64,000 bases of DNA from Candidatus Woesebacteria bacterium RBG_13_46_13 (GCA_001791995.1 MGFR01000001.1:177148-241147), one strand, 5' to 3'; numbered from the stretch's first letter, positions 4,484 to 63,081 are shown. Made by a program: numbers and translations. Notes: generated by a model not told the origin, from the letters alone.

Positions 4484-5371
4484 ATGGCCGCGAAATCCGA
4501 CTACTACGACATTCTGGGAGTCTCCAAAAGCGCCTCAGCTGAAGAAATAAAAAAAGCCTACCGGAAACAGGCCTTAGAGTGGCACCCCGATAGACACAAA
4601 GACGAGAAAGAAGCTGCGGAGCGGCGCTTCAAAGAAATAAACGAGGCTTACCAAATTTTATCCGATCCTCAGAAACGCTCGGCCTATGACCAGTTCGGAC
4701 ATTCTGCTTTTTCCCCGGGGGGCATGCCCGGTGGTTTCGGGGGAGGCGGAGGACCATTTGGTCAAACCGGCCGCTATGGACCCTTTACTTATACCTATAC
4801 GACCTCGGGTGGAGGCGGGGGCAATCCCTTTGCGGGATATGATTTCGGAGATCCGTTTGAAATCTTCGAGCAATTTTTCGGCGGGGGCAATCCCTTTCGC
4901 CAGGCAAGGCAAATTCCGCGCTACTCAATCAGCATCGATTTCATGGACGCGATAAAGGGGGTTGCCAAGGAGGTGGACATTGAAGGGAAAAAGCGCAAGA
5001 TTAAAATTCCCGCCGGAGTTGGGGAGGGTTCAAGAATCAACTTCGGAGATTTTATGCTCTCTATTAATATCAGGCCGCACGAGGTATTTGAAAGAGACGG
5101 AGACGATATCTACGTAAAAGTCGAAATTCCCTATTCGATGGCGGTTTTGGGAGGGGACGTCGACGTTCCCACGGTTTACGGAGATGTAAAAATTCGTATC
5201 CGTCCGGGAACCCAGTCGGGTACGATGGTTCGCCTGCGCGAAAGGGGCGCTCCCCGGGTTCACGGCCGGGGAAAAGGAGATGAGTATGTCAGGATCAATC
5301 TTCTGGTGCCCGACAAACCCACGCATAAGCAAAAAAAGATAATCGATGAAATGAAAGAGGAAGGGTTATAA
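4484..5371 (+). CDS. dnaJ: J-domain co-chaperone DnaJ/CbpA-type (G/F-rich linker, no Cys-rich zinc finger)
   Basis: DYYDILGV...HPDRHKD J-domain with HPD motif; Gly/Phe-rich region; C-terminal beta-sandwich domains; no CxxCxGxG repeats. Confidence 0.8.
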
Positions 5372-5372
5372 C

Positions 5373-6080
5373 TTAAACGTATTTTATTGCCTTAAAAGGA
5401 AAAGTTTTTTGGTAAACGATTGCATCAAGGAGAAAGGTGGGGGCGACTCTTAAGTCTCCCTGTTTCCCCTCTTTAATAACCTGAAGATCCAATAGCTCCT
5501 GATAAGTGTAGGTTTTTCTGATGGAGCGCCAAGCTACTTCATTTAAAGTTGCCGCATGAACCAAACCGACTCTTTCTGGTCCGGTGAGTTTTCCTCCCAA
5601 GACACAAGCGCCGACATCGTGGGCCAAGTCGTCTAAGCTGAAAACTCGCTCGTGTTCGGTGCCGACAAATAGCCTGTTTCCCTGCCCAATCCTTACCGAG
5701 TTTTCTCTGGTCAGAAGATCGTTTTGTCCTCTGGCATTAACAAAGCTGGTTCCCAGCGGAACCTCCTGGGGGGTAAAACCCACATCTTTGGCTATTTCAT
5801 AGAAGGACTCAATAGAACGGTCGTGGTAGGCAGCTGATAAGCGATGTCCGTGTTGGGCAATTTTATCCCTGACGTTTTTTAAGCTATTTAATTCCCTTTG
5901 CTTGAGGGAAGGCTCGATTCCTTCTTTAATCTCCATTAAACTGATTTTATCGTTTTTGTTTTCGGAAAAGAAATAGATTGACTTAAGGGAGCTTCCGGAG
6001 TAAACTTCAGGGTGGATTTGGATTTGAATGGTGGGATTTTTGCCCGCCATTTTTTTTAGAAAGATATATGCAAACACCAA
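5373..6080 (-). CDS. Hypothetical protein (235 aa, soluble, no recognised motif)
   Basis: Clean 235-codon ORF with protein-like composition, convergent on dnaJ and start-overlapping nusA; no family assignable from sequence alone. Confidence 0.5.
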   Translation of the reverse strand: MVFAYIFLKKMAGKNPTIQIQIHPEVYSGSSLKSIYFFSENKNDKISLMEIKEGIEPSLKQRELNSLKNVRDKIAQHGHRLSAAYHDRSIESFYEIAKDVGFTPQEVPLGTSFVNARGQNDLLTRENSVRIGQGNRLFVGTEHERVFSLDDLAHDVGACVLGGKLTGPERVGLVHAATLNEVAWRSIRKTYTYQELLDLQVIKEGKQGDLRVAPTFLLDAIVYQKTFPFKAIKYV

Positions 6081-7168
6081 GAACTGAATTTGCCCAGGCT
6101 TTAAAAGCCATTGCCACCGAAAGGGGGCTTGACCCCAACGTTATTTTGGAAACGATTGAACAGGCGATAATTGCAGCTTACAGGAGGGATGCCAGAGAAC
6201 GCGGAGAAGATACGGAAGAAATGGATTTTGACGTTGAGATTAATTCAACCAACGGAGAAGCAAGAGTTTTTGCCTGGCCCCTGGAGAAGCCGGAAGAAAG
6301 AAAAGACGTTACGCCTCCGGGATTTGGTCGAATAGCGGCCCAGACCGCAAAACAGGTTATTCATCAGAAAATTCGCGAGGCGGAAAAAGGAGCGATTATG
6401 GATGAATTCTCGGGAAGAGTGGGAACGCTCATTTCTGGAATGGTATTAAGATTCGACGGACCGAATGTCAGGGTGGATATCGGCAGGACCGAGGCCCTAA
6501 TGCCTGCCGAGGAAAGAATCCCCAATGAAAGGCTCAATTTGAACCAAAGATTTTCTTTTCTTTTGAAGGATATTCAAGAAGGACTTAAAGGCAAAGAAAT
6601 AATCCTCTCAAGGGCAGACCCCCGCTTTGTAGAAAAGCTTTTTGCCAGGGAAGTTCCGGAAATTTCCTCAGGTAATGTTGTTATCAAGCAAATAGCCAGG
6701 GAAGCCGGAACCAGGACTAAAATAGCGGTCATCTCCAACCAATCCGGAGTTGATCCTGTGGGAAGCTGTGTCGGGCAAAAAGGTGTTAGAGTGCAGGCGG
6801 TGACCAATGAACTTGGCGGAGAAAGGGTTGATATTATTCCCTTCAGTGAAGACTCCTCGGAGCTTATCGCCTCTGCGCTTTCTCCGGCCGAGAATATCAG
6901 TGTGGAGCTTAATGAAGAAAGCAAAACCGCCAAGGTCAAGGCTCCCGAAGACCAACTCTCTTTGGCGATAGGCAAAGAGGGGCAAAATGTCAGGTTGGCC
7001 GCCAGACTTACGGGTTGGAGAATTGAAGTCGAATCTTCCGGAGTTAAAACCGAGGGAGAGGCTAAACCCAAAACCAAAGCGGTTGCCAAGAAGAAAACCA
7101 AAAAATCTGTAGCCAAAAAAGAAGAAAAGGTAAAGGAAGAACCGAAAAAAGCCGAGAAAAAGGAATGA
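6068..7168 (+). CDS. nusA: Transcription termination/antitermination factor NusA
   Basis: N-terminal domain, S1 and KH regions (IAREAGTRTKIAV.., GQKGVRVQAV..); K/E-rich tail; precedes infB. Confidence 0.9.
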   Translation: MQTPRTEFAQALKAIATERGLDPNVILETIEQAIIAAYRRDARERGEDTEEMDFDVEINSTNGEARVFAWPLEKPEERKDVTPPGFGRIAAQTAKQVIHQKIREAEKGAIMDEFSGRVGTLISGMVLRFDGPNVRVDIGRTEALMPAEERIPNERLNLNQRFSFLLKDIQEGLKGKEIILSRADPRFVEKLFAREVPEISSGNVVIKQIAREAGTRTKIAVISNQSGVDPVGSCVGQKGVRVQAVTNELGGERVDIIPFSEDSSELIASALSPAENISVELNEESKTAKVKAPEDQLSLAIGKEGQNVRLAARLTGWRIEVESSGVKTEGEAKPKTKAVAKKKTKKSVAKKEEKVKEEPKKAEKKE

Positions 7169-13187: not shown

Positions 13188-13802
13188 ATGGAAGAGAAGG
13201 AAAAATCAGCAAGACTCCAGGATTTAAAAAAGAGAATGCAAAACGACACGGCTCTGCCTTTGAGAAATTCAGCCACCCAATTGGTTTTTGGTGAAGGCAG
13301 CCCTGATACTAAAATATTCTTTTTGGGAGAAGGCCCTGGTTATTGGGAAGACCAGAAAGGCAGACCTTTCGTGGGAAATGCGGGCGCTCTACTCAACCAG
13401 CTGCTTTATTCTATTAAACTACCCAGGCAAGACGTATTTATCACCAACGTGATCTGTTTTAGGCCACCGGAGAACAGAGATCCTTTACCCGAGGAGATTG
13501 AAGCTTTTAGGCCCTATATCGACGAAATGATTGATATCATGAAGCCTAAGCTGATTGTTACTCTGGGGCGCTTTTCTATGGCCAAATTTGTTCCCGGAGC
13601 CAAGATAACCGCTGTTCACGGAAAATCTTTCGTTGTAGACTGGAAGGGAAGAAAAATTACCGTTGTTCCGATGTTTCATCCTGCAGCGGCCTTAAGAAGC
13701 GGGGAAGTATTGCGAATGATTAAAGAAGACTTTATGCTTCTTCCTGATATCCTTAAGAAGGAAAACCAGGTACAGGCCGAACAGATGAATTTAAGCATAT
13801 GA
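13188..13802 (+). CDS. Uracil-DNA glycosylase, family 4-like
   Basis: GEGPGYWEDQKGRPFVGNAGALL motif A and a HPAAALR-type motif B; ATG at 13188 follows the Lon-like stop directly. Confidence 0.8.
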   Translation: MEEKEKSARLQDLKKRMQNDTALPLRNSATQLVFGEGSPDTKIFFLGEGPGYWEDQKGRPFVGNAGALLNQLLYSIKLPRQDVFITNVICFRPPENRDPLPEEIEAFRPYIDEMIDIMKPKLIVTLGRFSMAKFVPGAKITAVHGKSFVVDWKGRKITVVPMFHPAAALRSGEVLRMIKEDFMLLPDILKKENQVQAEQMNLSI

Positions 13803-15454
13803 AAAATAGCCTCAAATTTATAGCACTCTCCGGTACGACCGGAGTAACCGAAAATTTCTATATTTATGAATACGGAAACGATATGATCATCGTCGACTGT
13901 GGCGTGGGATTTCCCGAGCATGACATGCTCGGGGTGGATTTGGTCATCCCGGATTTTTCCTATGTCAAGAAAAATATCTCCAAACTGCGCGGAGTACTTA
14001 TTTCTCACGGACACGAAGACCATCTCGGAGCTTTACCCTTCCTCTTAAAAGAGATAAAAACTCCCATCTATTCGACGAAGCTGGTTGCGGGTTTTATTGA
14101 GGATAAATTTGAAGACTATGGATTACCGAGCCCGAGGGTTGTGGTTTTTGATCCGGAAAGGGACGTTATCTCTCTGGGAGTTTTCAAAGTAGCACCCTTT
14201 AGGGTCTCACACTCCGTTCCCGACGGTGTCGGCTTTGCAATCGATACCCCCGAAGGAAAAATTTTCCACGTCCCCGACTATAAGTTTGACTGGACCCCGG
14301 TCGACGGGAAGCCCTTTGATGTGACCAGAATGGTGTCTTTGGCGACAGGGGGCGTATTGGGTGTGGCATCGGATTCCTTAGGCTCCACAACTCCTGGCTA
14401 TACCGAAAGCGAGAGGGAAATAGAAGGCAAACTGGAAGAGATTATCAGGAAGGGCAAACGACGTGTTTATTTCACCACGATTTCTTCGAATATTTCCAGA
14501 GTTCAGCAGGCACTACAGGTAGCTGCCCGTTTGGGCCGCAAGGTGAGTTTTGTCGGAAAATCAATTGACCGAAAAGCCGAAATTGCCAGGAACTTGGGGT
14601 ACCTGCATTATTCAAAAGATCTGGTTATCCCGGCAAAGCAGGCCGCCAAACTGCCGATCGAGAGAGTGATGTATATCATTTCCGGCAGTTACGGTCAGCC
14701 CGGAAGCGCACTCTATAGAGTGGCATTGGGGGATCACGATTTCTTAAAAATAGAGGCTAACGACTTGGTTGTTTTTTCTTCGGATCCGGCCCCGCCCGGC
14801 TCCAAGACAAACGTGGACTTTGTGGTGGATAAACTGATCGAGCTTAATGCCGATGTGCACTATTACGATGTTCAGGAGGATTTGCACGTCTCCGGGCACG
14901 GTAGCCAGAAGGATATCCTGATGCTTTTTGGACTTTTAAAGCCCAAATATTTTATGCCCATAGGTGGGACGGTTAGGCACATGAGGTCTTATAGCCTCTT
15001 GGCCCAAAGCATCGGGGCGGATGGCAGAAACGTCTTTGAGCTAACCCCGGGTGAAATCGTCGAGTTTAAATCCGGCCTGGCCAGGCTTTCCGGAAAGGTC
15101 CCTACCAGAAATATTTTGGTTGATGGCTTAGGAGTTGGAGATGTGGGCAACGTTGTCTTAAGAGACAGGCAGGTTCTTGCCCGGGACGGTGTAGCCATAG
15201 TTCTTTTGATGTTTGACGGGGCCAATAGAGTCTTGGTTGCAGACCCAGAGATAATCAGCCGAGGCTTTGTTTACGAGAACAAAGAGAAAGAGTTTCTACT
15301 TAGAGCCGGTAAAGATTTAAGGCGCCTTATTGAATCCAAAAAAAGAATAGACGGGAAACTTCTAAAAGACGAATCTCAAGACTTCCTTGAGAAGTATTTC
15401 TATGCAAAGACGGGCAGGCGCCCGATGGTTCTTCCCCTGATTGTGGAAGTATAA
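13799..15454 (+). CDS. rnj: Ribonuclease J (metallo-beta-lactamase/beta-CASP)
   Basis: HGHEDHLGALP metal-binding motif, beta-CASP region, 551 aa; start overlaps the UDG stop (ATGA). Confidence 0.9.
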   Translation: MKNSLKFIALSGTTGVTENFYIYEYGNDMIIVDCGVGFPEHDMLGVDLVIPDFSYVKKNISKLRGVLISHGHEDHLGALPFLLKEIKTPIYSTKLVAGFIEDKFEDYGLPSPRVVVFDPERDVISLGVFKVAPFRVSHSVPDGVGFAIDTPEGKIFHVPDYKFDWTPVDGKPFDVTRMVSLATGGVLGVASDSLGSTTPGYTESEREIEGKLEEIIRKGKRRVYFTTISSNISRVQQALQVAARLGRKVSFVGKSIDRKAEIARNLGYLHYSKDLVIPAKQAAKLPIERVMYIISGSYGQPGSALYRVALGDHDFLKIEANDLVVFSSDPAPPGSKTNVDFVVDKLIELNADVHYYDVQEDLHVSGHGSQKDILMLFGLLKPKYFMPIGGTVRHMRSYSLLAQSIGADGRNVFELTPGEIVEFKSGLARLSGKVPTRNILVDGLGVGDVGNVVLRDRQVLARDGVAIVLLMFDGANRVLVADPEIISRGFVYENKEKEFLLRAGKDLRRLIESKKRIDGKLLKDESQDFLEKYFYAKTGRRPMVLPLIVEV

Positions 15455-15465
15455 TGTAGATTGCG

Positions 15466-17547
15466 ATGAGCAAGAGGCACAGACGTTCAACCAAAAGAGC
15501 TTTTAATCTCAGGCTGAAAAAAGGCACGGTCTATTCCATTGTCCAGGTCTTTTTCTTTGCCTTGGCAGGACTTATATTGGTGTCTTTTTCCAGGCAGGGG
15601 CTGGTTTTGGTGAGGCTTAATGATTTGCTCATCAGCGCTTTTTCCTGGACGACTTTTATTCTGCCCTTCCTTTTTCTTTCCTTTGCTTTGCTTGTTTCCA
15701 AAATCAAAAACCCGTTGGGGCAACCGAATGTGGTTATCGGCGGACTGCTTTTTTTTGTTTCGATCCTGACCCTAGGTAGGGCAGGAGCAATCGGCAGGAT
15801 GGCCTGGGGGGGAGCCTCTTCGTTGGTTACCTCCATCGGGGCCTTTATAGTACTTTTAGGTACCACACTGGTGGGGCTGATCATTCTTTTCAATACTTCT
15901 TTCGAACAGGTAATAGAATTGGCCTCGGGTATTATTGCCCAGGCCAAGAAATATATCCTTGGCGAAAAAGGATTTTCCAGGCAAACCTCCCGTGGGCCAA
16001 TGAAAGTCTCGGGTGGAGCTCTGCCCCAGGCTGGGGCAAGACCGCCGCAGGAAGTACCAGGACAACTCGAACAAAAATTGGTAAGTAATGTCCCCGGAGA
16101 AGAAAAGGTTTGGAAATATCCCTCCATCGAACTCTTAAGCGATGTCGAAAGCGGCAAGGCCAATCGCGGAGACATTAAAGGCAACGCCGCCACGATTGAA
16201 AAAACTCTTGAATCGTTTGGTATAACCGCACGGGTGGTTGAGGTTAACTTGGGCCCCGCGGTTACCCAATATGCACTTGAGGTGGCCCTGGGGACAAAGC
16301 TTTCGAAGATTACTTCCCTGGAGCGGGATTTAGCTCTGGCCCTTTCCGCCCCGACGGGAACAATCAGGATTGAGGCGCCGATTCCGGGAAGGAATCTGGT
16401 GGGCATAGAGCTGCCCAACATCAGCCCGGAGTTTGTTCCATTAAGAAGAATGATGGAATCCGATGTGATTAGGGATAATCATTCGAAGCTAGCCGTGGCC
16501 CTGGGATTGGATGTTTCGGGTAAGCCCATCGTCACCGAGATCGGCAGAATGCCCCACGTTCTGATTGCGGGCCAGACCGGCTCCGGAAAGTCGGTTTGTA
16601 TCAACGCTTTCTTGGCAACGATTCTTTTTAGGGCGGCCCCATCCGAGGTTAAGCTGATTATGGTTGACCCTAAGAGAGTAGAGCTGACCCATTACAACGG
16701 TATCCCGCACCTTCTCTCTCCGGTAATCGTCGAACCTGAAAAAGTGATATCTGCCCTGAAGTGGATTCTGGCGGAAATGGACAGGCGTTACAAGCTTTTT
16801 GCCCAAGCTGGAGCCAGAAATATCGATGGCTATAACGAAATGTCGGGTTTCCAGGCTCTTCCTTATATAGTGCTTTTCATCGACGAACTTGCGGATATCA
16901 TGCTTTTCTCACCGGTGGAGGTAGAAGATGCGATTACCAGAATTGCCCAGATGAGCCGGGCCACAGGTATACATATGGTTCTGGCGACCCAAAGACCTTC
17001 GGTGGATGTTATTACGGGTCTTATCAAGGCCAACATTCCCTGCAGGATAGCTTTTGCGGTTGCCTCCCAGGTAGATTCCCGGGTAATACTGGATACCCAG
17101 GGAGCGGAAAAACTCTTGGGGCGGGGAGATATGCTTTACCTGCCTCCCGAACAGGCCAAACCGATCAGAATTCAGGGAGCCTTCGTTTCGGATAAGGAGA
17201 CCAACGCACTGGTTGCCTTCCTTAAAAACCAGGGAGTTACCCCCCAATATACCGAGGAGGTAACCTCAATGCCTAAAGGTGGGGGGGCAACAGTTCCGGG
17301 TCTTACAGGTGAGGCAGACGATTTGTTTGCGGAAGCGGTGAGGGTAGTTTGCCAATACGAGAGAGCCTCGGCCTCCCTTTTGCAAAGACGGCTTTCAATC
17401 GGCTATGCCCGAGCAGCCCGAATTATCGACCAACTGGAAGCTGCCGGCGTCGTCAGCCAGGCTGAGGGATCCAAAGCCAGGGATGTTCTGGTCCAAAACG
17501 CCGAAGAATTTCTAGCTTCTGCCTCACAAGGTAGTGAGCCCCAATGA
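15466..17547 (+). CDS. ftsK: DNA translocase FtsK/SpoIIIE
   Basis: N-terminal TM segments, GQTGSGKSV Walker A, LFIDELAD Walker B, C-terminal gamma (wHTH) domain. Confidence 0.92.
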   Translation: MSKRHRRSTKRAFNLRLKKGTVYSIVQVFFFALAGLILVSFSRQGLVLVRLNDLLISAFSWTTFILPFLFLSFALLVSKIKNPLGQPNVVIGGLLFFVSILTLGRAGAIGRMAWGGASSLVTSIGAFIVLLGTTLVGLIILFNTSFEQVIELASGIIAQAKKYILGEKGFSRQTSRGPMKVSGGALPQAGARPPQEVPGQLEQKLVSNVPGEEKVWKYPSIELLSDVESGKANRGDIKGNAATIEKTLESFGITARVVEVNLGPAVTQYALEVALGTKLSKITSLERDLALALSAPTGTIRIEAPIPGRNLVGIELPNISPEFVPLRRMMESDVIRDNHSKLAVALGLDVSGKPIVTEIGRMPHVLIAGQTGSGKSVCINAFLATILFRAAPSEVKLIMVDPKRVELTHYNGIPHLLSPVIVEPEKVISALKWILAEMDRRYKLFAQAGARNIDGYNEMSGFQALPYIVLFIDELADIMLFSPVEVEDAITRIAQMSRATGIHMVLATQRPSVDVITGLIKANIPCRIAFAVASQVDSRVILDTQGAEKLLGRGDMLYLPPEQAKPIRIQGAFVSDKETNALVAFLKNQGVTPQYTEEVTSMPKGGGATVPGLTGEADDLFAEAVRVVCQYERASASLLQRRLSIGYARAARIIDQLEAAGVVSQAEGSKARDVLVQNAEEFLASASQGSEPQ

Positions 17548-23741: not shown

Positions 23742-24716
23742 ATGAAGAAATACATCGCCCTGCTTGCCCTTGTTGTAGTCTTAATTGGGCTACTTTCTGC
23801 CGCGAATTATTGGTGGCAGAATACGTCTAAACCCGTCAGTAATCAGAGAGAAGATGTTGATTTTTTGATTACTAAAGGAAGTTCTGCTGGCAAGGTCGGG
23901 CTTCAACTTCAGCAAGAAGGTTTAATTCGCTCAGCCACCGCTTTCAGGCTTTATGTTCAGCTGACCGGGAAATCCAAAAGTATCCAGGCGGGGGAATATA
24001 GCCTTTCGGCGAATTACTCTCTGATTAAAATGGTTGATATTCTTTCCAAAGGGCCGATAGAAGTCTGGGTGACGATTCCGGAAGGGCTAAGGCGGGAAGA
24101 GGTTGCCTTAAGATTTGCCGACGGATTGGGCAAGAAAGACAAGGGGCCCTTTGTCGAGGAATTTTTAAGTTCTTCAAAGGGAAAAGAGGGTTATCTTTTC
24201 CCAGATACCTACCTTTTCCCCAAAACGGGCACCGCCCAACAGGTTGTTAATAAAATGCTGACAACTTTTGACAACAAAATAGAACCGTTTACCAAAGATA
24301 TTTCCCCCTCGTCCTTGTCTAAAAACGAAATTGTTACCCTGGCCTCGATTGTAGAAAGAGAGTCCAGATCCGACTCGGAAAGGCCAGTTGTTGCCGGCAT
24401 TCTATTAAACAGAATCGATATCGGCATGGGGCTTGGAGCCGATGCTACTGTCCAGTATGCGGTGGGGACTGCCGAAAATTGGTGGCCGATTCTGTCCAAA
24501 GACGATTTGGCAACGGCTTCCCCATATAATACCTATAGATTCCGCGGACTACCCCCAACACCTATCGCCAACCCGGGAATCTCTTCTTTGCGCGCGGCGA
24601 TTTTTCCCGAGGAGTCCGATTATCTCTACTACCTGCACGACGCAAAAGGACAGATATATTACGCTACAACACTTGCCCAGCACAACGAAAACATACGCAA
24701 GTACTTGGGTAAGTAA
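23742..24716 (+). CDS. mltG: Endolytic murein transglycosylase MltG (YceG family)
   Basis: N-terminal TM, then a YceG domain (GEYSL, VTIPEG..REE motif region, LYYLH near the C-terminus). Confidence 0.85.
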   Translation: MKKYIALLALVVVLIGLLSAANYWWQNTSKPVSNQREDVDFLITKGSSAGKVGLQLQQEGLIRSATAFRLYVQLTGKSKSIQAGEYSLSANYSLIKMVDILSKGPIEVWVTIPEGLRREEVALRFADGLGKKDKGPFVEEFLSSSKGKEGYLFPDTYLFPKTGTAQQVVNKMLTTFDNKIEPFTKDISPSSLSKNEIVTLASIVERESRSDSERPVVAGILLNRIDIGMGLGADATVQYAVGTAENWWPILSKDDLATASPYNTYRFRGLPPTPIANPGISSLRAAIFPEESDYLYYLHDAKGQIYYATTLAQHNENIRKYLGK

Positions 24717-24725
24717 AGATAACCC

Positions 24726-24754
24726 TTGACAGGGTCCTTTCTTTTTGTATAATC
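24726..24754 (+). promoter_or_regulatory. Consensus sigma70 promoter TTGACA-17-TATAAT upstream of rpoB
   Basis: Perfect hexamers at 24726-24731 and 24749-24754 with a 17-nt spacer. Confidence 0.6.
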
Positions 24755-24760
24755 CCATTA

Positions 24761-24778
24761 GGCGTAGGAAACTACGCC
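24761..24778 (+). other. GNRA-tetraloop hairpin GGCGTAG-GAAA-CTACGCC in the rpoB leader
   Basis: Perfect 7-bp stem with a GAAA loop, starting 7 nt after the -10. Confidence 0.5.
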
Positions 24779-24806
24779 CCCTCTTCGTCTAATAGAGGGG
24801 ATTTTT
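24779..24806 (+). terminator. Terminator/attenuator-like hairpin CCCCTCT-N9-AGAGGGG followed by ATTTTT in the rpoB leader
   Basis: GC-rich 6-7 bp stem directly followed by a T5 run, 15 nt before the rpoB ATG. Confidence 0.4.
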
Positions 24807-24820
24807 GTGTTTAGTCGCTA

Positions 24821-27800
24821 ATGACCACCACAAACAATACCCAACATAGGATTTTTGGCAAAGAAGAAAAGAATCTACCCACTCTTGATCTTTCTTTGGT
24901 GCAGAGAGAATCTTGGGAATGGTTTTTGGGAGAAGGGATTGCTTTAGAACTTGTTGAAATTTCCCCGATTGATGATTTTACCGGTAAAAATTGGCAACTC
25001 AAATTAGGCGAGCATGCCTTAGGTCTTCCGACAATTGCTCCCCGCGTTGCTCAGCAAAAGGGAATTACCTACTCCTCTCCTTTAAAGATTAACGCCACCT
25101 TGGTAAATAAAAAGACCGGCAAGGAGGTCTCGCAGGAGGTATTTTTGGGAGATCTTCCCCAGATGACGTCCCGTGGGACTTTCATTATTAACGGAATTGA
25201 AAGGGCGGTTATTAACCAGATAGTCAGAAGCCCCGGAGTTTATTTTTCAGGGGAACTCGATGCCTCCAGCGGCAGAATGCTTTATAAAGCCGAAGTCAGG
25301 CCCCTGCACGGTTCTTGGCTGGAGTTTGAAGTTGCCAGGAACGATGTGTTGGCCGCCAGGATAGACAGAAGGAGAAAAGTGCTGGCAACCGTTTTCTTAA
25401 GGGCCTTGGGGATAGAGACGGACGCGGATATTCTGGAGTTCTTCAAAGAGACAGACAAAAACGCCCAGCATCACTACATCGAGGCCACTCTGGCCAAAGA
25501 TTCAACCAAGAGTAAAGAGGAAGCCCTTTTGGAGATTTATCGAAAGATGAGACCAGGGGAACCAGCGGTTTTGGAAAATGCGGAAACACTATTTACCTCG
25601 TTATTCCTTGAACCCAGACGCTACGACTTGGGGAAGGTCGGCAGATTCAAAATCAACAAAAGGTTAAGCCTGACCTTACCCAATGAAAAATCTACCTGGA
25701 TTCTTACCAGACAGGATGTCGTGGGAGCCATTAAATATCTCATCGGCCTGCAAAACGGGGAAGGTAGGGTGGACGATATTGACCATTTGGCCAACCGACG
25801 TCTAAGGCGGGTGGGAGAGTTGGTCGCGGTCAACGCATTTAGGGTAGGGCTTTTAAGAATGGAACGCTCGGTCAAGGAAAAAATGAGTCTGATTTCACCG
25901 GACGACAGACCGCTTCCGGCGACCTTAATAAATGCGCGCCCGCTTATTGCTTCCCTGAATGAATTTTTCAGGTCGAATCAGCTTTCAACCATACTTGATG
26001 ACACCAACCCTCTTTCCGAAATCGATAACTTAAGAAGGGTTTCGGTCTTGGGCCCCGGCGGAATCAATCGGGAAAGGGCCTCATTCTCCATTCGGGACGT
26101 TAATTCCTCTCAATACTCAAAAATAGACCCCGTTCGTTCTCCCGAAGGACCCAATATCGGACTGGTTACTTACTTGGCTCTTTATGCCCGAGTCAACGAG
26201 TTCGGGTTTATCGAAGCTCCGTACAGAAAAGTTCAAAAGATAAAAAGAGGTAACAAAATTCTAATCAAAGTAACGGATGAGATAATTTTTGTTACGGCCG
26301 ACGATGAGGAAGATTTCCATATCACCCATTCGGGGGTGGAGATTGACGCCAGAGGTTATATAGTAGGCCCCAGAGTCCCCTTCAGGTTTAAGGGTACATT
26401 CACCGAAGGACCGGTCGAACTTATTGATTTGATAGACGTTACCCCCCGTCAGGTGGTGGGTGCCTCGGCCGCCTTAATTCCGTTCTTGTCGCACGATGAA
26501 GGTAACCGTGCCCTGATGGGCTCCAATATGCAATGTCAGGCGGTTCCCCTGGTTTCCCCCGAATCCCCAGTGGTAGGAACCGGAACGGAGATAGAAATTG
26601 CCCAGGCGATGGGCAGAGTAGTCAGGGCCCGCCACGCCGGAACCGTTGAATATGCCGACGGAGAAAGAATAGAGGTCAAACTTAGCCAAAAAGTGGAGAA
26701 CGACAACCATTATGAGGATATTGAAATTGCCGAAGGCGGTAAAAAAGAAATTTATCACCTGACCAAATTCAAAAGAACCGCCCATTCAACCTGTTACAAC
26801 CAAAGAGTCCGGGTTATCACCGGCGATAAGGTAAAGCCGGGCGAGCTTCTGGCCGATGGGCCGGCCGCGGAAAAGGGAGAGCTTGCCTTGGGCAGGAATT
26901 TGGTTATCGCCTACAGCAATTTCGGAGGATACGGATTTGAAGACGCAATTTTGGTCTCCGACAGGTTAGTCAAAGATGATTCCTTAACCTCGATTCACAT
27001 CGAAGAATATGAAGCAGATGTGGTGGATACTAAGCTTGGCCCCGAAGAGTTGACTCGGGATATCCCCAATGTTGCGGAAACCGAACTGGCAAATTTGGCC
27101 GAAGACGGAATAGTGGTCATCGGTGCGGAGGTCGGACCCAACGACATTTTGGTCGGTAAGATTGCCCCGAAGGGAGAGACCGAGCTGACTTCGGAGGAAA
27201 GGCTATTAAGAGCCATTTTCGGAGAGAAAGCCAGAGAGGTCAGAGATACCTCCCTCAGGGTTCCCCACGGAGAGCGCGGAATTGTGGTTGACGTTTCAAT
27301 ACTGGATAAAGACAAAGGGGACGAGCTAGGCCCGGGAGTGATTAAGAAAGTGATTGTTAAAGTCGCCCAGATGAGGAAGATTACGGTGGGAGATAAGGTT
27401 GCCGGACGCCACGGCAATAAGGGTGTAATTTCCAAAATCATGCCGGTTGCGGATATGCCCTATCTTGAGGACGGAACGCCGGTTGATATTATCATCTCAC
27501 CCCTTTCGGTCCTGGCCCGAATGAACCTCGGACAGCTTCTGGAATGCCATTTGGGGTGGGCTCTCTCCAAGAAAGGCCAAAAGGCCTATCTTCCGGTCTT
27601 CGAGAAGATAAAAGAGGATGTCATCGAAAAAGAATTGAAAGAAGCCGGCCTGCCGGTTACGGGAAAGGCCAGGCTCTGTGACGGTAGAACCGGAGAGCCT
27701 TTTAAAGAGGATACGGTAGTTGGAATCAGCTACATCATGAAACTTATCCACATGGTTGAGGACAAAACACATGCGCGCTCGACCGGTCCGTATTCTTTGG

Positions 27801-28213
27801 TTACACAGCAGCCATTGGGAGGCAAAGCCCAAATGGGAGGTCAGCGTTTAGGGGAAATGGAAGTTTGGGGACTCGAAGCCCACAGGGCAGCCTATACTTT
27901 GCAGGAGATGCTGACCATAAAATCCGACGATGTGGTCGGCCGCGCCAGAGCCTTTGAGGCCATAGTTAAAGGCGTGGATATTCCCGAATCCACGGTTCCC
28001 GAATCGTTTAAAGTTTTGGTCAGAGAACTTAATTCCTTGGGGCTTGGAGTTGAGGCCAGGGGAGCGGTTATGGCCAAAGATTTGGGAGGCGAAGAAGGGG
28101 AGAAGGGAACCGAGTTGGCCAAGGCGGCCGGGGCGGAAGTGGTCGCAACCGCGGAGTTGGTTAGTCCGGTGGGGACAATGGAGGTAGAAGAGGTAAAGGA
28201 GGCAACAAGCTAA
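24821..28213 (+). CDS. rpoB: DNA-directed RNA polymerase subunit beta
   Basis: 1130 aa with universally conserved beta-subunit blocks (e.g. GDKVAGRHGNKGV, NMQRQAVPL-like region). Confidence 0.97.
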   Translation: MTTTNNTQHRIFGKEEKNLPTLDLSLVQRESWEWFLGEGIALELVEISPIDDFTGKNWQLKLGEHALGLPTIAPRVAQQKGITYSSPLKINATLVNKKTGKEVSQEVFLGDLPQMTSRGTFIINGIERAVINQIVRSPGVYFSGELDASSGRMLYKAEVRPLHGSWLEFEVARNDVLAARIDRRRKVLATVFLRALGIETDADILEFFKETDKNAQHHYIEATLAKDSTKSKEEALLEIYRKMRPGEPAVLENAETLFTSLFLEPRRYDLGKVGRFKINKRLSLTLPNEKSTWILTRQDVVGAIKYLIGLQNGEGRVDDIDHLANRRLRRVGELVAVNAFRVGLLRMERSVKEKMSLISPDDRPLPATLINARPLIASLNEFFRSNQLSTILDDTNPLSEIDNLRRVSVLGPGGINRERASFSIRDVNSSQYSKIDPVRSPEGPNIGLVTYLALYARVNEFGFIEAPYRKVQKIKRGNKILIKVTDEIIFVTADDEEDFHITHSGVEIDARGYIVGPRVPFRFKGTFTEGPVELIDLIDVTPRQVVGASAALIPFLSHDEGNRALMGSNMQCQAVPLVSPESPVVGTGTEIEIAQAMGRVVRARHAGTVEYADGERIEVKLSQKVENDNHYEDIEIAEGGKKEIYHLTKFKRTAHSTCYNQRVRVITGDKVKPGELLADGPAAEKGELALGRNLVIAYSNFGGYGFEDAILVSDRLVKDDSLTSIHIEEYEADVVDTKLGPEELTRDIPNVAETELANLAEDGIVVIGAEVGPNDILVGKIAPKGETELTSEERLLRAIFGEKAREVRDTSLRVPHGERGIVVDVSILDKDKGDELGPGVIKKVIVKVAQMRKITVGDKVAGRHGNKGVISKIMPVADMPYLEDGTPVDIIISPLSVLARMNLGQLLECHLGWALSKKGQKAYLPVFEKIKEDVIEKELKEAGLPVTGKARLCDGRTGEPFKEDTVVGISYIMKLIHMVEDKTHARSTGPYSLVTQQPLGGKAQMGGQRLGEMEVWGLEAHRAAYTLQEMLTIKSDDVVGRARAFEAIVKGVDIPESTVPESFKVLVRELNSLGLGVEARGAVMAKDLGGEEGEKGTELAKAAGAEVVATAELVSPVGTMEVEEVKEATS

Positions 28214-35102: not shown

Positions 35103-35110
35103 ACTGATAC

Positions 35111-35140
35111 TTGACACTATTTATCGAGGCTAGGTATAAT
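35111..35140 (+). promoter_or_regulatory. sigma70 promoter TTGACA-18-TATAAT upstream of tuf
   Basis: Perfect hexamers at 35111-35116 and 35135-35140. Confidence 0.5.
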
Positions 35141-35151
35141 ACGCTCAATGT

Positions 35152-35177
35152 AAGGGCAACTATGCCCTTTTCTGTTT
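35152..35177 (+). terminator. Terminator/attenuator-like hairpin AAGGGCA-ACTA-TGCCCTT plus a T-rich tail in the tuf leader
   Basis: 7-bp perfect stem immediately followed by TTCTGTTTG, downstream of the tuf promoter and 33 nt before the ATG. Confidence 0.35.
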
Positions 35178-35210
35178 GTAAAAGGATTAAGTTTAATATA
35201 AAATACGCAT

Positions 35211-36741: not shown

Positions 36742-36745
36742 CCTC

Positions 36746-36774
36746 TTGCGCAGTTTAGCTTCCTCTGATATAAT
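36746..36774 (+). promoter_or_regulatory. sigma70 promoter TTGCGC-17-(TGa)TATAAT in the rpsJ-rplC gap
   Basis: Extended -10 TGATATAAT at 36766-36774; -35 at 36746-36751. Confidence 0.45.
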
Positions 36775-36834
36775 TTTCGCATCGTGGAGGTGATCGGTAA
36801 GGTCTAATCACCAAGTTTGCAGGATGTGCCCCTT

Positions 36835-36859
36835 AAAGGTGCCTCCGGCACCTTTTTTT
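36835..36859 (+). terminator. Intrinsic-terminator-like element AAA-GGTGCC-TCC-GGCACC-TTTTTTT, 11 nt before the rplC start
   Basis: 6-bp GC-rich stem flanked by an A3 run and a T7 run (bidirectional terminator form), lying between rpsJ and rplC. Confidence 0.45.
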
Positions 36860-36870
36860 GTGTTCAAAAA

Positions 36871-51751: not shown

Positions 51752-51779
51752 TTAGCTTCACTGTGTTATAATTTTACCC

Positions 51780-53063
51780 ATGCGCGCTAAAGCCGGAATT
51801 ACACTCCCCAAAGGCACAAAAGTTCCAGACCACATCGCGATTATTCCCGACGGCAACCGCCGTTGGGCCAGAGCCAGAGGACTCCCGACTCTCCAAGGCC
51901 ACAAAAAAGGATTTGACGCTGCAGTACTTGTTTCCAGGGCAGCCAGAGATATCGGTATCCATACCGTAACCATGTGGGGATTTTCAACGGACAATTGGGA
52001 TCGGGCAAAAGAGGAAATAAATTATCTAATGAAGCTTTATGCCAAACTGGTAGACGATTATCTTAAGGACGCAAAGAAAGACAATGTCAAAATAGTTCAC
52101 CTTGGCAGAAAAGACAGGCTTCCCCAACTCCTTCTTAAAAAGATTGCTTTTGCGGAAGAAACAACCAAGGATAACTCCAAATATATTATGAATATCGCCA
52201 TCGATTACGGTGGCCAGGACGATATCATCCGGGCCACCCAAAGCATGATCAAAGATGGGGTCAAAGCCGAACAGGTAGACAAAGCTCTTTTTGAAAAATA
52301 CTTGGATACGAAAGACCAGCCCTATCCTTATGTCGATTTGATAATTAGATCATCGGGTGAACAAAGGACCAGCGGATTTTTGCTTTGGCAGTCCGCTTAT
52401 GCGGAAACATATTGGGAAAACGACCATTTTCCCGACTTCACACCCGAAAAGCTTAAGGCAGCCATTCTCGACTATTCGAGACGCAGAAGAAGGTTTGGAG
52501 GTAATGATGCCGAGGAACACCTCAAATTTAACCCCGAGGTCGTTGCTAAACTTGAAGTTGCCTGGTGGAGATTAAGGAAGATTCCCGAGGGGACGCGCTT
52601 TAGGGATTACGCCTTTAAACACCTAAGAGAGCAGTACGGATTTTCAAAGCACATCGCCAAGAAAGCCGCCAAGTATTTACTTACCGCATTTTTGGAGCAG
52701 GACAACGGCAGAAACTGGGAAAAGGCCATGCGGGAGGTCGGCAAGTTTTACTCTCTTTTAAGAGAAGAGCTGAAGCTGGCCTTTGAGCCGTCCTTGGTTG
52801 CTTCCTTGGAAGTTAAGATGTGGAGGGACCTGGAGGGCAAGGACGAGGTCCGTTCTGCGGGTGAGGCAGAAGAGACCGCCAGAGAGCTTTACGCGGAAGT
52901 CTATAGAATATCTCTTCTGCAGGCAGCCAAAGCGGCCCATTTAAGGGTTATGGCCAATATCGAGCGGGGTTTGGCCGAGCGGGGATTCGGAGACAAACAC
53001 TGGGCCAGGGCAGAGGACTACTTGGAGAAATTCTACCGTGCCCTCAAGGAAAGAGTTGCCTAA
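51780..53063 (+). CDS. uppS: Undecaprenyl-diphosphate synthase (cis-prenyltransferase) with a roughly 180-aa helical C-terminal extension
   Basis: HIAIIPDGNRRWA signature, and the ...RTSGFLLWQSAYAE and DYSRRRRRFG motifs; 427 aa against a typical length of about 250. Confidence 0.88.
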   Translation: MRAKAGITLPKGTKVPDHIAIIPDGNRRWARARGLPTLQGHKKGFDAAVLVSRAARDIGIHTVTMWGFSTDNWDRAKEEINYLMKLYAKLVDDYLKDAKKDNVKIVHLGRKDRLPQLLLKKIAFAEETTKDNSKYIMNIAIDYGGQDDIIRATQSMIKDGVKAEQVDKALFEKYLDTKDQPYPYVDLIIRSSGEQRTSGFLLWQSAYAETYWENDHFPDFTPEKLKAAILDYSRRRRRFGGNDAEEHLKFNPEVVAKLEVAWWRLRKIPEGTRFRDYAFKHLREQYGFSKHIAKKAAKYLLTAFLEQDNGRNWEKAMREVGKFYSLLREELKLAFEPSLVASLEVKMWRDLEGKDEVRSAGEAEETARELYAEVYRISLLQAAKAAHLRVMANIERGLAERGFGDKHWARAEDYLEKFYRALKERVA

Positions 53064-53817: not shown

Positions 53818-53888
53818 CGGGGAGTAGTTTAACGGTAGAATAGGCGCATGGGGTGCGTCTGGACGGAGTTCAATTCTCCGCTCCCCGA
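53818..53888 (+). tRNA. tRNA-Pro (anticodon GGG)
   Basis: Hand-folded cloverleaf: 7-bp acceptor stem (CGGGGAG/CTCCCCG), D-arm with GG, anticodon stem GGCGC/GCGTC with loop AT-GGG-GT, T-arm CGGAG-TTCAATT-CTCCG; CCA is not encoded. Confidence 0.85.
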
Positions 53889-57917: not shown

Positions 57918-58193
57918 ATGACCAAAAGAGAATTGGTAGACCTCGTTGCCCGAAAAGCCCACTTAACCAAAAGGGCCGCAATTGAAGCGGTCGATGTTTT
58001 CCTCGGTGAGGTAGGCAGGGTTCTTTCCAAAGGAGAAAAGGTGGTTCTTTCCGGATTCGGAACATTCAGGGTTATCTCCATGAAGGGTAAAACCGTAAAG
58101 ATTCCCAGGACGGATAAAATGGTAACCATCAAAGCCCATCGTTCTCCCCGCTTCACTCCTGGCAAGAAGCTAAAAAGACAAGTCTCCAGATAA
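57918..58193 (+). CDS. hup: DNA-binding protein HU
   Basis: MTKRELVDLVA...GFGTF..R.ARNPRTG-like arm region. Confidence 0.9.
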   Translation: MTKRELVDLVARKAHLTKRAAIEAVDVFLGEVGRVLSKGEKVVLSGFGTFRVISMKGKTVKIPRTDKMVTIKAHRSPRFTPGKKLKRQVSR

Positions 58194-58215
58194 TTGTTGT
58201 AGTATACTTTCATAG

Positions 58216-59214
58216 ATGGACAAGGCTATTGTTGTTGACCATTTGCTTAAAAACTTCGAAGTTACCGAGAAAAAACCGGGTCTGGTAAACTCCTTCACTT
58301 CTATATTTTCTCCCCAGAAAAAAACGATCAGAGCCCTAAGAAACATTTCTTTCACCGTTGAGTCCGGGGAGCTTGTCGGTTTTATCGGCCCCAACGGTGC
58401 CGGGAAAACAACCACCCTTAAGGTTTTATCCGGACTGCTTTATCCGACATCGGGCTTTACCTCTGTTTTGGAATTCGATCCCTGGGACAGAAAACCGGAA
58501 TTTTTGAAACAAATCTCTTTGGTGATGGGGCAGAAAAACCAGCTCTGGTGGGATTTACCCGCCATGGAGACTTTTGAGCTTAATCGGGCGATATACGAAA
58601 TACCCAAAAGGCAGTATGAAGAGACTTTGGATGAGCTGACCGAGCTTTTGGAAGTAAAAAAACTTTTAAACATCCAAGTCCGAAGGCTTTCCTTGGGTCA
58701 GAGAATGAGGCTTGAGTTGGTGGCGGCCTTGCTGCATAGTCCCAAAATTCTTTTCTTGGACGAGCCCACCCTGGGATTGGATTTGATTGCCCAACAGAAG
58801 ATGCGGGACTTTATCTACGAATACAACCGGCGCTCCGGCGCAACAATCCTTTTAACTTCCCACAACATGGACGATTTAATGGACCTGGCCAGGCGGGTCA
58901 TCGTCATCGACGAAGGCAGAATAATTTTCGACGGGGCACTTGAGGAATTGGTTAACCGCTTTGCCAAGGAAAAAATAATCAAGGTATCCCTCTTAAGAGA
59001 AGACGATATCAAGAGAATCGAGGAGATAGGTAAGGTAAAGAAATTGGCCTTTCCAGAAGTTATCCTCTCGGTTCCCAGAAGCACTACGGCGGTGGCCGCG
59101 GCGGAGCTGTTGCAAAACTTTCCTGTTGCCGATTTGACGATTGAGGAAGTTCCGATTGAGGAGGTTATCCGTAAAGTCTTCCGGGGAGAGGGAAAGAAAA
59201 AGCTTCTTAAATGA
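58216..59214 (+). CDS. ABC transporter ATP-binding protein (ABC-2 type)
   Basis: Walker A GPNGAGKTT, signature LSLGQRMR, Walker B ILFLDEPT. Confidence 0.88.
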   Translation: MDKAIVVDHLLKNFEVTEKKPGLVNSFTSIFSPQKKTIRALRNISFTVESGELVGFIGPNGAGKTTTLKVLSGLLYPTSGFTSVLEFDPWDRKPEFLKQISLVMGQKNQLWWDLPAMETFELNRAIYEIPKRQYEETLDELTELLEVKKLLNIQVRRLSLGQRMRLELVAALLHSPKILFLDEPTLGLDLIAQQKMRDFIYEYNRRSGATILLTSHNMDDLMDLARRVIVIDEGRIIFDGALEELVNRFAKEKIIKVSLLREDDIKRIEEIGKVKKLAFPEVILSVPRSTTAVAAAELLQNFPVADLTIEEVPIEEVIRKVFRGEGKKKLLK

Positions 59215-62792: not shown

Positions 62793-63081
62793 GACCTCTG
62801 GAGGGTAGTAAGCCAGGTTCTGTTTCAGATGACCATCTGTCTAATGCCCTCAAACTTTGGGTCTCGGGAAAGCATCCTGATAACGACCCGTTCGGAGGTT
62901 GCAGCGGGGAGGATTGCCCCTTTTCACTCGTTCTCGTCTACCTTTAGGGTAGATGAGTCGACATAGTCTCTGTGGCTCTGACTAGCGCTTTCGCGTTCCC
63001 GCTTGCGCGGGACACCCTGCTTTCTGCTGCCTGGACTTTCCTCCCCGATTTTATTCGGGGCGGTCATCCTTCCTCCAGAGT
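62793..63081 (-). ncRNA. rnpB: RNase P RNA (bacterial type A-like, reduced, about 289 nt)
   Basis: The reverse complement contains the P4 strands AGGAAAGUCCAGGC and ACAGAACCUGGCUUAC, a P3 hairpin (GCCCCGAAUAAAAUCGGGG), the P9-like CCCGCGCAAGCGGG hairpin identical to E. coli M1 RNA, and P1 pairing CUCUGGAGG/CCUCCAGAG. Confidence 0.7.

Follow-up and report, generated by a model that had tools for sequence, protein, structure and literature searches.

In Escherichia coli, the rplL-rpoB attenuator lies within the rplKAJL-rpoBC operon, which is fed by ribosomal-protein promoters, and an RNase III processing stem is found alongside it. Even in this organism, the way in which the level of RNA polymerase is balanced is only partly understood, and gene regulation in the uncultured Patescibacteria, whose genomes are very small and contain few regulators that can be recognised, is to our knowledge a blank. 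In this study, we describe the leader of rpoB in a 64,000-nucleotide (nt) stretch of DNA, hereafter called the window, from Candidatus Woesebacteria bacterium RBG_13_46_13 (GCA_001791995.1 MGFR01000001.1:177148-241147), a Woesebacteria-like member of the Microgenomates (Patescibacteria). Two other structured RNAs located upstream of rpoB, Lacto-rpoB and Rhodo-rpoB, are each specific to one lineage, mutually unrelated, of unknown function and presumed to be cis-regulatory (PMC5737381). Leader attenuators of other housekeeping operons include that of Bacillus subtilis rplJL, which is read by L10(L12)4 (PMC4538822), and that of infC, which is read by L20 (PMC1865079); in addition, NusA and NusG of B. 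subtilis stimulate termination at suboptimal terminators (PMC8060035). The leader described here is apparently an undescribed, class-wide rpoB motif of the Microgenomates.

Results

The leader is shared by rpoB loci of related genomes

The genes of the window are densely packed and co-directional, and the leader occupies the 104-nt gap between the YceG/MltG gene and rpoB (Table 1). When a 71-nt leader sequence was folded with RNAfold, exactly two hairpins were obtained (−24 kcal/mol; z = −2.7 compared to dinucleotide shuffles), here called hairpin 1 and hairpin 2. In order to compare this region with that of other genomes, 80 rpoB loci were taken from species-representative genomes, each rpoB start was located and the upstream DNA was read; the closest relatives by RpoB were metagenome-assembled genomes of Woesebacteria, Microgenomates and Gottesmanbacteria with 64-84% identity. 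Approximately 72 of these 80 loci share the leader of the window. The order of promoter, hairpin or hairpins, T-tract and ATG was constant across the loci, with promoter and start being predicted features. A preliminary description of the window, made from the sequence alone, had proposed the architecture of an attenuator or of a protein- or RNA-binding leader, and had suggested an alignment of related rpoB leaders as a check. The outcome of this comparison was the opposite of a loss of the hairpins, as about 72 of 80 loci keep hairpin 1 and 72 of 77 keep a terminator signature, and at the level of sequence the proposed architecture is thus supported. Neither structure corresponded to a known family: positions 24600-24950 gave no Rfam match at E values up to 10, and 16 related rpoB loci gave none at the gathering score, with locus L080 yielding noise only.

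Hairpin 1 is the sequence-conserved element of the leader. The consensus in a MAFFT alignment of 73 segments (A1) was tAGGCGTAC-N3-9-GTACGCT, and 95.7% of the cells of its 7-pair helix held standard pairs, compared to 27-48% when the 3' partner was slid by 1-3 columns. Compensatory double changes were found at three of the seven pairs (G-C to C-G; U-A to A-U; and C-G to A-U, U-A or G-C), a degree of covariation that was reached by none of 500 column shuffles, and the window carries such a double change itself, having G24767-C24772 in place of the consensus C-G. Among the non-Watson-Crick pairs there were 77 G·U versus 5 A·C. Because G·U pairs far outnumber A·C pairs and the length of the loop varies, the element is better read as a hairpin in the plus-strand RNA than as a palindromic DNA operator, and on the evidence of this alignment, with compensatory changes on one strand, hairpin 1 is a conserved structured RNA. 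The stem at 24761-24778 had been described before with emphasis on its GAAA loop; the 7 bp hold, but the GNRA loop is not a conserved feature, since the loops of relatives are 3-9 nt long and varied in sequence, with GNRA in only 3 of about 16 four-base loops. Considering the 59 leaders in which the promoter scores 11/12 or better and hairpin 1 could be assigned, the hairpin starts 7-9 nt past the −10 hexamer in 45, that is, at the predicted +1 or +2, while in Gottesmanbacteria-like genomes it starts 21-30 nt past the −10.

In the Gottesmanbacteria-like loci L056, L062, L065-L069, L071, L074, L076, L078 and L080, a 37-nt block, GAGGCGAACGTTCATTGTTCGCTTCTTTTTGTCGTTC, located about 25-55 nt past the −10, was near-invariant including the loop. 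On its 5' side this block has a conserved AGCCU-N5-AGGCG, with the potential for a 4-bp mini-hairpin that would overlap the 5' arm. The idea that this type of hairpin encodes a short peptide (ATT or TTG start after AAGGAGG) was rejected, as neither the frames nor the stops were consistent.

A terminator-like signal follows, and its stem drifts in sequence

In the window, a stem of 6-7 bp (about −11 kcal/mol) is followed by AUUUUUGUGUUU, the combination of GC-rich stem-loop and U-rich tract seen in intrinsic terminators; the tail after hairpin 2 reads G24800, A24801 and then TTTTTGTGTTT at 24802-24812. The CCCCTCT/AGAGGGG stem noted in the preliminary description is therefore present together with its U-tract, but it has 6 bp if hairpin 1 is fully formed, as the 7-bp form requires C24778, the last base of hairpin 1. 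The rpoB ATG lies 14 nt after T24806. A terminator signature was defined as a stem with 5 bp or more, of which 3 or more are G-C, and at least 5 T in 8 nt starting within 2 nt of it; 72 of 77 leaders carried this signature, whereas shuffling these leaders with their dinucleotides preserved gave 5.9±2.6 (maximum 16). The stem of hairpin 2 had 17 different 5-bp cores in 36 loci, all of them paired (e.g., CCCGC/GCGGG, CCCAA/TTGGG, CCCTC/GAGGG and GCCGT/ACGGC), and its positions gave the three top mutual-information pairs. These counts are structure-anchored, as whole-leader MAFFT/RNAalifold alignment left hairpin 2 out of register. Overall, hairpin 1 holds one consensus over 64-84% RpoB identity, while the stem of hairpin 2 drifts.

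The two elements were found in three arrangements. In arrangement A (the window and about 25 loci), hairpin 1 abuts, within 0-5 nt, the second hairpin and its T-tract. In arrangement B (about 11 loci), hairpin 1 is followed by a T-run and then by a second hairpin and T-tract, giving tandem units. In arrangement C (about 25 loci), a 9-bp hairpin 1, GAGGCGAAC-GTTCATT-GTTCGCTTC, runs directly into TTTTTGTCGTT and there is no second hairpin; as RNA, this Gottesmanbacteria-like form is GAGGCGAAC-GUUCAUU-GUUCGCUUC abutting UUUUUGUCGUU. Judged by these alignments, what is kept is the coupling of a hairpin that is specific in sequence with an intrinsic-terminator signal of a generic kind, and in some cases both are fused in one stem-loop. 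Since the sequence of hairpin 1 is kept and that of hairpin 2 is not, and since hairpin 1 is kept even in arrangement A, where it is no longer the terminator stem, it would appear to be recognised by a protein, a Nus factor or the polymerase.

Several other functions were considered for the 3' part of the leader. The distance from terminator to ATG ranged from 14 to 71 nt, a variability that gives no hint of a link between the element and the ribosome-binding site. The AGAGGGG of the window is not conserved as a Shine-Dalgarno-like element, given that relatives have GCGGG, TTGGG and others at this place, and like that of the window, the rpoB leaders of relatives mostly have no Shine-Dalgarno sequence. 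A leader mini-ORF starting with GTG at 24807 (GTG TTT AGT CGC TAA), 6 nt past GAGGGG and with its stop overlapping the rpoB ATG (TAATG), was rejected, as the GTG was missing in 11 of 28 close leaders, the open reading frame (ORF) lengths and stops were erratic and GAGGGG was not conserved. Pairing of AGGCG with CGUCU of the hairpin 2 loop, as an antiterminator or pseudoknot, was also rejected, showing neither covariation nor consistent pairing.

Hairpin 1 is specific to rpoB in the DNA sampled

A covariance model of hairpin 1 (R1) was searched over approximately 1.03 Mb, comprising the window, the 80 rpoB loci, 26 tuf loci and 4 nusA loci. Within the window there was one good match, the rpoB leader (26.3 bits, E = 8e-7). 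In the 707 kb of rpoB loci, R1 matched at the rpoB-leader position only, with a palindromic echo on the opposite strand, and it found the leader of L075, on which it had not been trained. Nothing convincing was found in 175 kb around tuf, and nothing in 84 kb around nusA. As far as these searches reach, hairpin 1 is rpoB-specific. The second-best match in the window, at 4545-4576 on the minus strand (17.4 bits; AAGGCCTGTTTCCGGTAGGCTT followed by T7), lies antisense within dnaJ, was not found in related nusA/dnaJ loci and is probably due to chance.

The gene upstream of the leader is YceG in 47 of 80 loci, a different gene in more than 20 and divergent in about 10, and both the leader and the terminator signature persist. 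Being kept whatever the upstream gene, the leader is an element of rpoB rather than a terminator serving a particular upstream operon.

The leader is preceded by a conserved promoter

As previously claimed, a perfect 12/12 promoter lies between mltG and rpoB, although its spacer is 16 nt and not 17 nt long. Perfect matches to TTGACA-N15-19-TATAAT occur twice in the window (rpoB, and tuf at 35111-35140), compared to 0.02 in shuffles. The perfect TTGACA-16-TATAAT was found in 52 of 81 leaders and six further leaders had 11/12 with the same spacing; the 16-nt spacing as such was found in 60 of 81. When 58 leaders were counted position by position, conservation was 97-100% in the hexamers versus 30-57% in the spacer. 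The base just 5' of TATAAT is G, so that there is no TGn extended −10. C is the base at the first and second positions past the −10 hexamer in 55% and 66% of leaders, respectively, where G is scarce. With conserved hexamers at a spacing that falls within the 16-18 bp of the sigma-70 type, the predicted rpoB promoter is by sequence a housekeeping promoter of this type. An inverted repeat around the −35 (ACCCT-TGAC-AGGGT, 24722-24735, with the T-rich spacer after it) was considered as a yceG terminator or operator and rejected; the mean repeat was 3.15 bp compared to 2.75 bp in shuffles, and its conservation was not clear.

Table 1. Positions of the rpoB leader, its flanking genes and the other predicted leader terminators of the window
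Feature	Position	Strand	Description
YceG/MltG gene	23742-24716	+	ORF 5' of rpoB
−35 hexamer, TTGACA	24726-24731	+	Promoter scan 12/12; 5/6 positions invariant in 58 related leaders, flanks variable
Spacer	24732-24747	+	16 nt, T-rich; sequence not conserved
−10 hexamer, TATAAT	24748-24753	+	Promoter scan 12/12
Discriminator, CCCATT	24754-24759	+	C-rich; directly 3' of the −10
Predicted transcription start, A24760 or G24761	24760-24761	+	7th-8th nt past the −10
Hairpin 1, GGCGUAG-GAAA-CUACGCC	24761-24778	+	7 bp, −11.6 kcal/mol; sequence-conserved element
Hairpin 2, CCCUCU/AGAGGG	24779-24799	+	Arms 24779-24784 and 24794-24799, 9-nt loop; terminator-like 6-bp stem, −11.0 kcal/mol
U-rich tract, ATTTTTGTGTTT	24801-24812	+	Directly 3' of hairpin 2
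Unstructured stretch AGTCGCTA, then rpoB ATG	24813-24823	+	Without Shine-Dalgarno sequence
rpoB	24821-28213	+	ATG 24821-24823; followed by rpoC, rpsL, rpsG, fusA
nusA leader	5979-6070	+	TTGACT (5979-5984), 17-nt spacer, TAAACT (6002-6007); 9-bp hairpin AATGGTGGG/CCCGCCATT (6027-6051), T8; ATG 6068
tuf leader	35103-35210	+	Perfect TTGACA-18-TATAAT (35111-35140); hairpin AAGGGCA/TGCCCTT (35152-35169), then TTCTGTTTGT; ATG 35211
rplC leader	36742-36870	+	Between rpsJ and rplC; TTGCGC-17-TATAAT, leader of about 90 nt, 9-bp hairpin AAAGGTGCC/GGCACCTTT (36835-36855), then TTTTTGTGTTC; ATG 36871

Predicted leader terminators of nusA, rplC and tuf

Outside ORFs, the window has four strong plus-strand sites in which a hairpin is followed by a T-tract, all of them 15-40 nt before an ATG, namely that of nusA, rpoB, tuf and rplC. 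The preliminary description had noted that the layout of promoter and terminator-like hairpin recurs at tuf and rplC, which it does in the window; its conservation is uneven, being seen in relatives for rplC but in only 2 of 15 promoter-bearing leaders for tuf, and nusA is a fourth case absent from that description. The extra, sequence-conserved hairpin is found in the rpoB leader only among these four.

The T8 that ends the nusA leader terminator lies 17 nt before the ATG of nusA (6068-7168). Relatives with NusA identities of 74-97% (L161-L167) keep this leader, and its stem shows a U·G to U-A change; this suggests that nusA could be under attenuation control, as is known in other bacteria. 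In the public nusA calls of L163 (10001) and L164 (4980), the gene starts at a TTG within the leader terminator hairpin (403 aa versus about 366 aa), and this start is probably mis-called. Upstream, the gap of approximately 700 nt between dnaJ and nusA (5373-6080, minus strand) holds a minus-strand ORF of 225-235 aa without a Pfam match, which the window shares with its nearest relative alone (L161, 9306-9983), the dnaJ-nusA spacing of other relatives being 70-100 nt.

In the rplC leader, the hairpin and TTTTTGTGTTC end 15 nt before the ATG. An identical hairpin is found in the closest relative (L081, 5540-5690), and a hairpin with T-tract lies just 5' of rplC in other Patescibacteria-like contigs (L082, L086, L091, L095, L101, L124 and L136). 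The rplC leader may be an attenuator of the S10-operon type (L4/L3). The tuf leader hairpin is kept in L081; the scan of metagenomes for tuf returned mostly non-Patescibacteria, and the tuf-leader test is that of 15 promoter-bearing loci. Given that the same design is conserved at nusA and also at rplC, this lineage appears to make a habit of placing leader terminators before genes of the transcription and translation machinery.

Other features of the window

The window contains no rRNA. It has a tRNA at 53818-53888 and a bacterial type A RNase P RNA at 62793-63079 on the minus strand, which at 287 nt spans the full 367-position model and is a reduced form, common in Patescibacteria. Shine-Dalgarno motifs were found at 28 of 61 genes overall, being frequent at internal operon genes and rare at first genes. 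Three genes have a TATAAT-like hexamer only 7-10 nt 5' of the ATG (51755-51782, ATG 51780; 15440-15468, ATG 15466; 58190-58218, ATG 58216), an arrangement that suggests leaderless or near-leaderless mRNAs.

Discussion

We consider it somewhat better than an even chance that this leader is an rpoB-specific transcription attenuator of the rpoB-rpoC(-rpsL-rpsG-fusA) unit, with the conserved hairpin as its recognition element. According to this model, the strong, dedicated sigma-70-type promoter would start transcription at about 24760, and the first 18 nt of the RNA would fold into hairpin 1, the stem sequence of which (GGCGUAC/GUACGCU) would be under selection. Hairpin 2 and the U-tract would then act as an intrinsic terminator, releasing part of the polymerases with an RNA of about 47-52 nt before the rpoB ATG. 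A protein, or the transcribing polymerase with its Nus complex, would bind hairpin 1 and thereby set the level of read-through, which would provide feedback on RNA polymerase synthesis. We infer the start site, the actual termination, the existence and identity of a factor and the direction of regulation. More specifically, hairpin 1 could be a sensor RNA for the transcription machinery (polymerase bound in cis, NusA/NusG, or a protein of the rpoBC-rpsLG operon) that tunes the adjacent terminator, giving a minimal feedback on polymerase dosage; this more specific proposal we regard as tentative and rather doubtful. If true, attenuators that respond to a protein or to the polymerase and need no alternative RNA folding would form a new class, and this one might act in coordination with the similar leader terminators of nusA and of the rplC operon.

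Several observations speak against attenuation at this site. In the window's clade, interruptions of the U-tract are frequent (CUUUAGUGUUUU, AUUUUCUGU) and hairpin 2 has a large loop of 8-11 nt, so that intrinsic termination could be weak. In addition, no antiterminator, anti-antiterminator or pseudoknot pairing was found beyond the two stems, and a mutual-information scan of 25 structure-anchored leaders showed only the pairs of the hairpin 2 stem; without an alternative pairing, any switch would not be of the classical two-structure type. A mutually exclusive antiterminator, however, is the mark of riboswitch- and T-box-type regulated attenuators and not of attenuators in general. Within the window's clade, hairpin 1 has no conserved loop, which is odd for a protein-binding hairpin, and recognition would need to read the stem. 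To place a terminator directly after a consensus promoter would seem wasteful without substantial read-through. Finally, both the start site and termination are predictions, and a hairpin at the 5' end, together with a U/A-rich stretch before a start that has no Shine-Dalgarno sequence, might just as well have a role in the stability of the mRNA or in its translation.

This last possibility, that hairpin 1 shields the rpoBC mRNA from decay that depends on the 5' end and that the U/A-rich stretch is a landing site for the ribosome (protein S1), deserves to be weighed, although we think it unlikely. In its favor, hairpin 1 lies at the predicted +1 or +2 (7-9 nt past the −10) in 45 leaders, RNase J is encoded at 13799-15454 (Pfam assignment of a syntenic gene), the starts of rpoB, tuf, rpsL and rpsJ have no Shine-Dalgarno sequence while internal operon genes have one, and the four strong non-coding sites of the window all lie shortly before an ATG. 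However, in Gottesmanbacteria-like genomes hairpin 1 is not 5'-terminal, and stability alone leaves unexplained why the sequence of hairpin 1 is conserved and that of hairpin 2 drifts. Termination is favored over a purely translational or stabilising role because a GC-rich stem always directly precedes the T-tract, as is characteristic of terminators, the distance from tract to ATG varies, some leaders (arrangement B) have tandem units of hairpin and T-tract, and hairpin 1 is not 5'-terminal in arrangement C. An autogenous operator of translation or stability, in which hairpin 1 is bound by the beta/beta' subunits, S12 or S7 and the terminator-like hairpin is incidental or constitutive, would account for a hairpin that is sequence-conserved and rpoB-specific in front of an operon with rpoB, rpoC, rpsL, rpsG and fusA, and there are precedents in E. 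coli, where RNA polymerase represses rpoBC translation and S7 controls the str operon. Hairpin 1 does not overlap the start codon, though, its loop is not conserved and the near-universal T-tract would be left without an explanation, and we consider such an operator quite improbable.

It is also conceivable that the site terminates the upstream operon, of which yceG is the last gene, and that in a compact genome it came to lie past the next promoter, where it insulates against read-through. The genes are co-directional and tightly packed, YceG is upstream in 47 of the 80 loci, and the abstract of a preprint describes promoter-terminator coupling as widespread in bacteria. Nevertheless, this explanation has very little probability in our view, as the leader including the terminator-like site is kept with a divergent (about 10 loci) or different (more than 20) upstream gene, the constant order of promoter, terminator and ATG means that RNA derived from the promoter always contains the complete terminator, and the conservation of the hairpin 1 sequence would not be explained. 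Least credible, and close to dismissed, is a DNA operator: GGCGTAC...GTACGCC is a near-perfect palindrome at +1 to +18 to which a dimeric repressor might bind over the transcription start, and symmetric changes of half-sites would mimic covariation. Against such an operator, the half-sites are spaced by 3-9 bp, the repeat lies 21-30 bp past the −10 in distant relatives, and the asymmetries are nearly all plus-strand G·U (77) versus A·C (5), which is expected only for RNA.

At a length of about 60 nt and with a class-wide distribution, the leader offers a concrete handle on RNA polymerase homeostasis in the Patescibacteria. It would be a third, structurally unrelated lineage-specific rpoB leader beside Lacto-rpoB and Rhodo-rpoB, supporting the repeated evolution of RNA-based control of rpoB. 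The parallel with the conserved leader terminators of nusA and rplC suggests that attenuation may be a main regulatory currency of these reduced genomes. Mondal and coworkers reportedly described autoregulation of nusA in 2016.

When compared with known systems, the leader resembles the rplL-rpoB attenuator of E. coli in having a terminator-like hairpin and U-run just 5' of rpoB, a site thought to set the entry of polymerase into rpoBC. The comparison, drawn already in the preliminary description, holds for function only: here rpoB is served by a consensus promoter of its own, 8 nt upstream, and is detached from rplJL, neither rplJ nor rplL being found among the subset of window ORFs scanned against Pfam. 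Moreover, there is an extra, sequence-conserved 7-bp hairpin and no long stem; in the 61-nt leader the stems have only 7 bp and 6 bp, with no long RNase III processing stem adjacent to them. The rRNA P1 promoters of E. coli form short-lived open complexes, and by inference from E. coli the rpoB promoter is like them in its fixed 16-bp spacer and C-rich discriminator. Stem-loops at the 5' end stabilise mRNAs, as in E. coli ompA and the aprE and ermC leaders of B. subtilis, where structure and not sequence is needed. A stable hairpin 1-2 nt from the 5' end of a highly expressed mRNA is common to both, but hairpin 1 keeps its sequence and is not 5'-terminal in distant relatives. The put RNA of phage HK022 consists of two larger stem-loops that suppress termination, acting in cis on their own polymerase, and the placement of one or more promoter-proximal hairpins before terminators is similar, which we take as an analogy only.

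With Lacto-rpoB and Rhodo-rpoB (Weinberg et al. 2010, 2017), the leader has in common that it is a lineage-restricted structured RNA upstream of rpoB, whereas the leader of the window and 16 related loci match neither model, and the present motif, a 7-bp hairpin with a terminator, is much simpler. The leader attenuators of Firmicutes, those of rplJL, infC and nusA, likewise place a promoter-proximal intrinsic terminator in the leader of a housekeeping operon, and theirs is read by a protein of the regulated system; they are 100-200 nt long and have alternative structures, compared to about 60 nt and none detectable here. By analogy, these attenuators, together with termination stimulated by NusA and NusG, are plausible mechanistic relatives of the rpoB leader of the Microgenomates.

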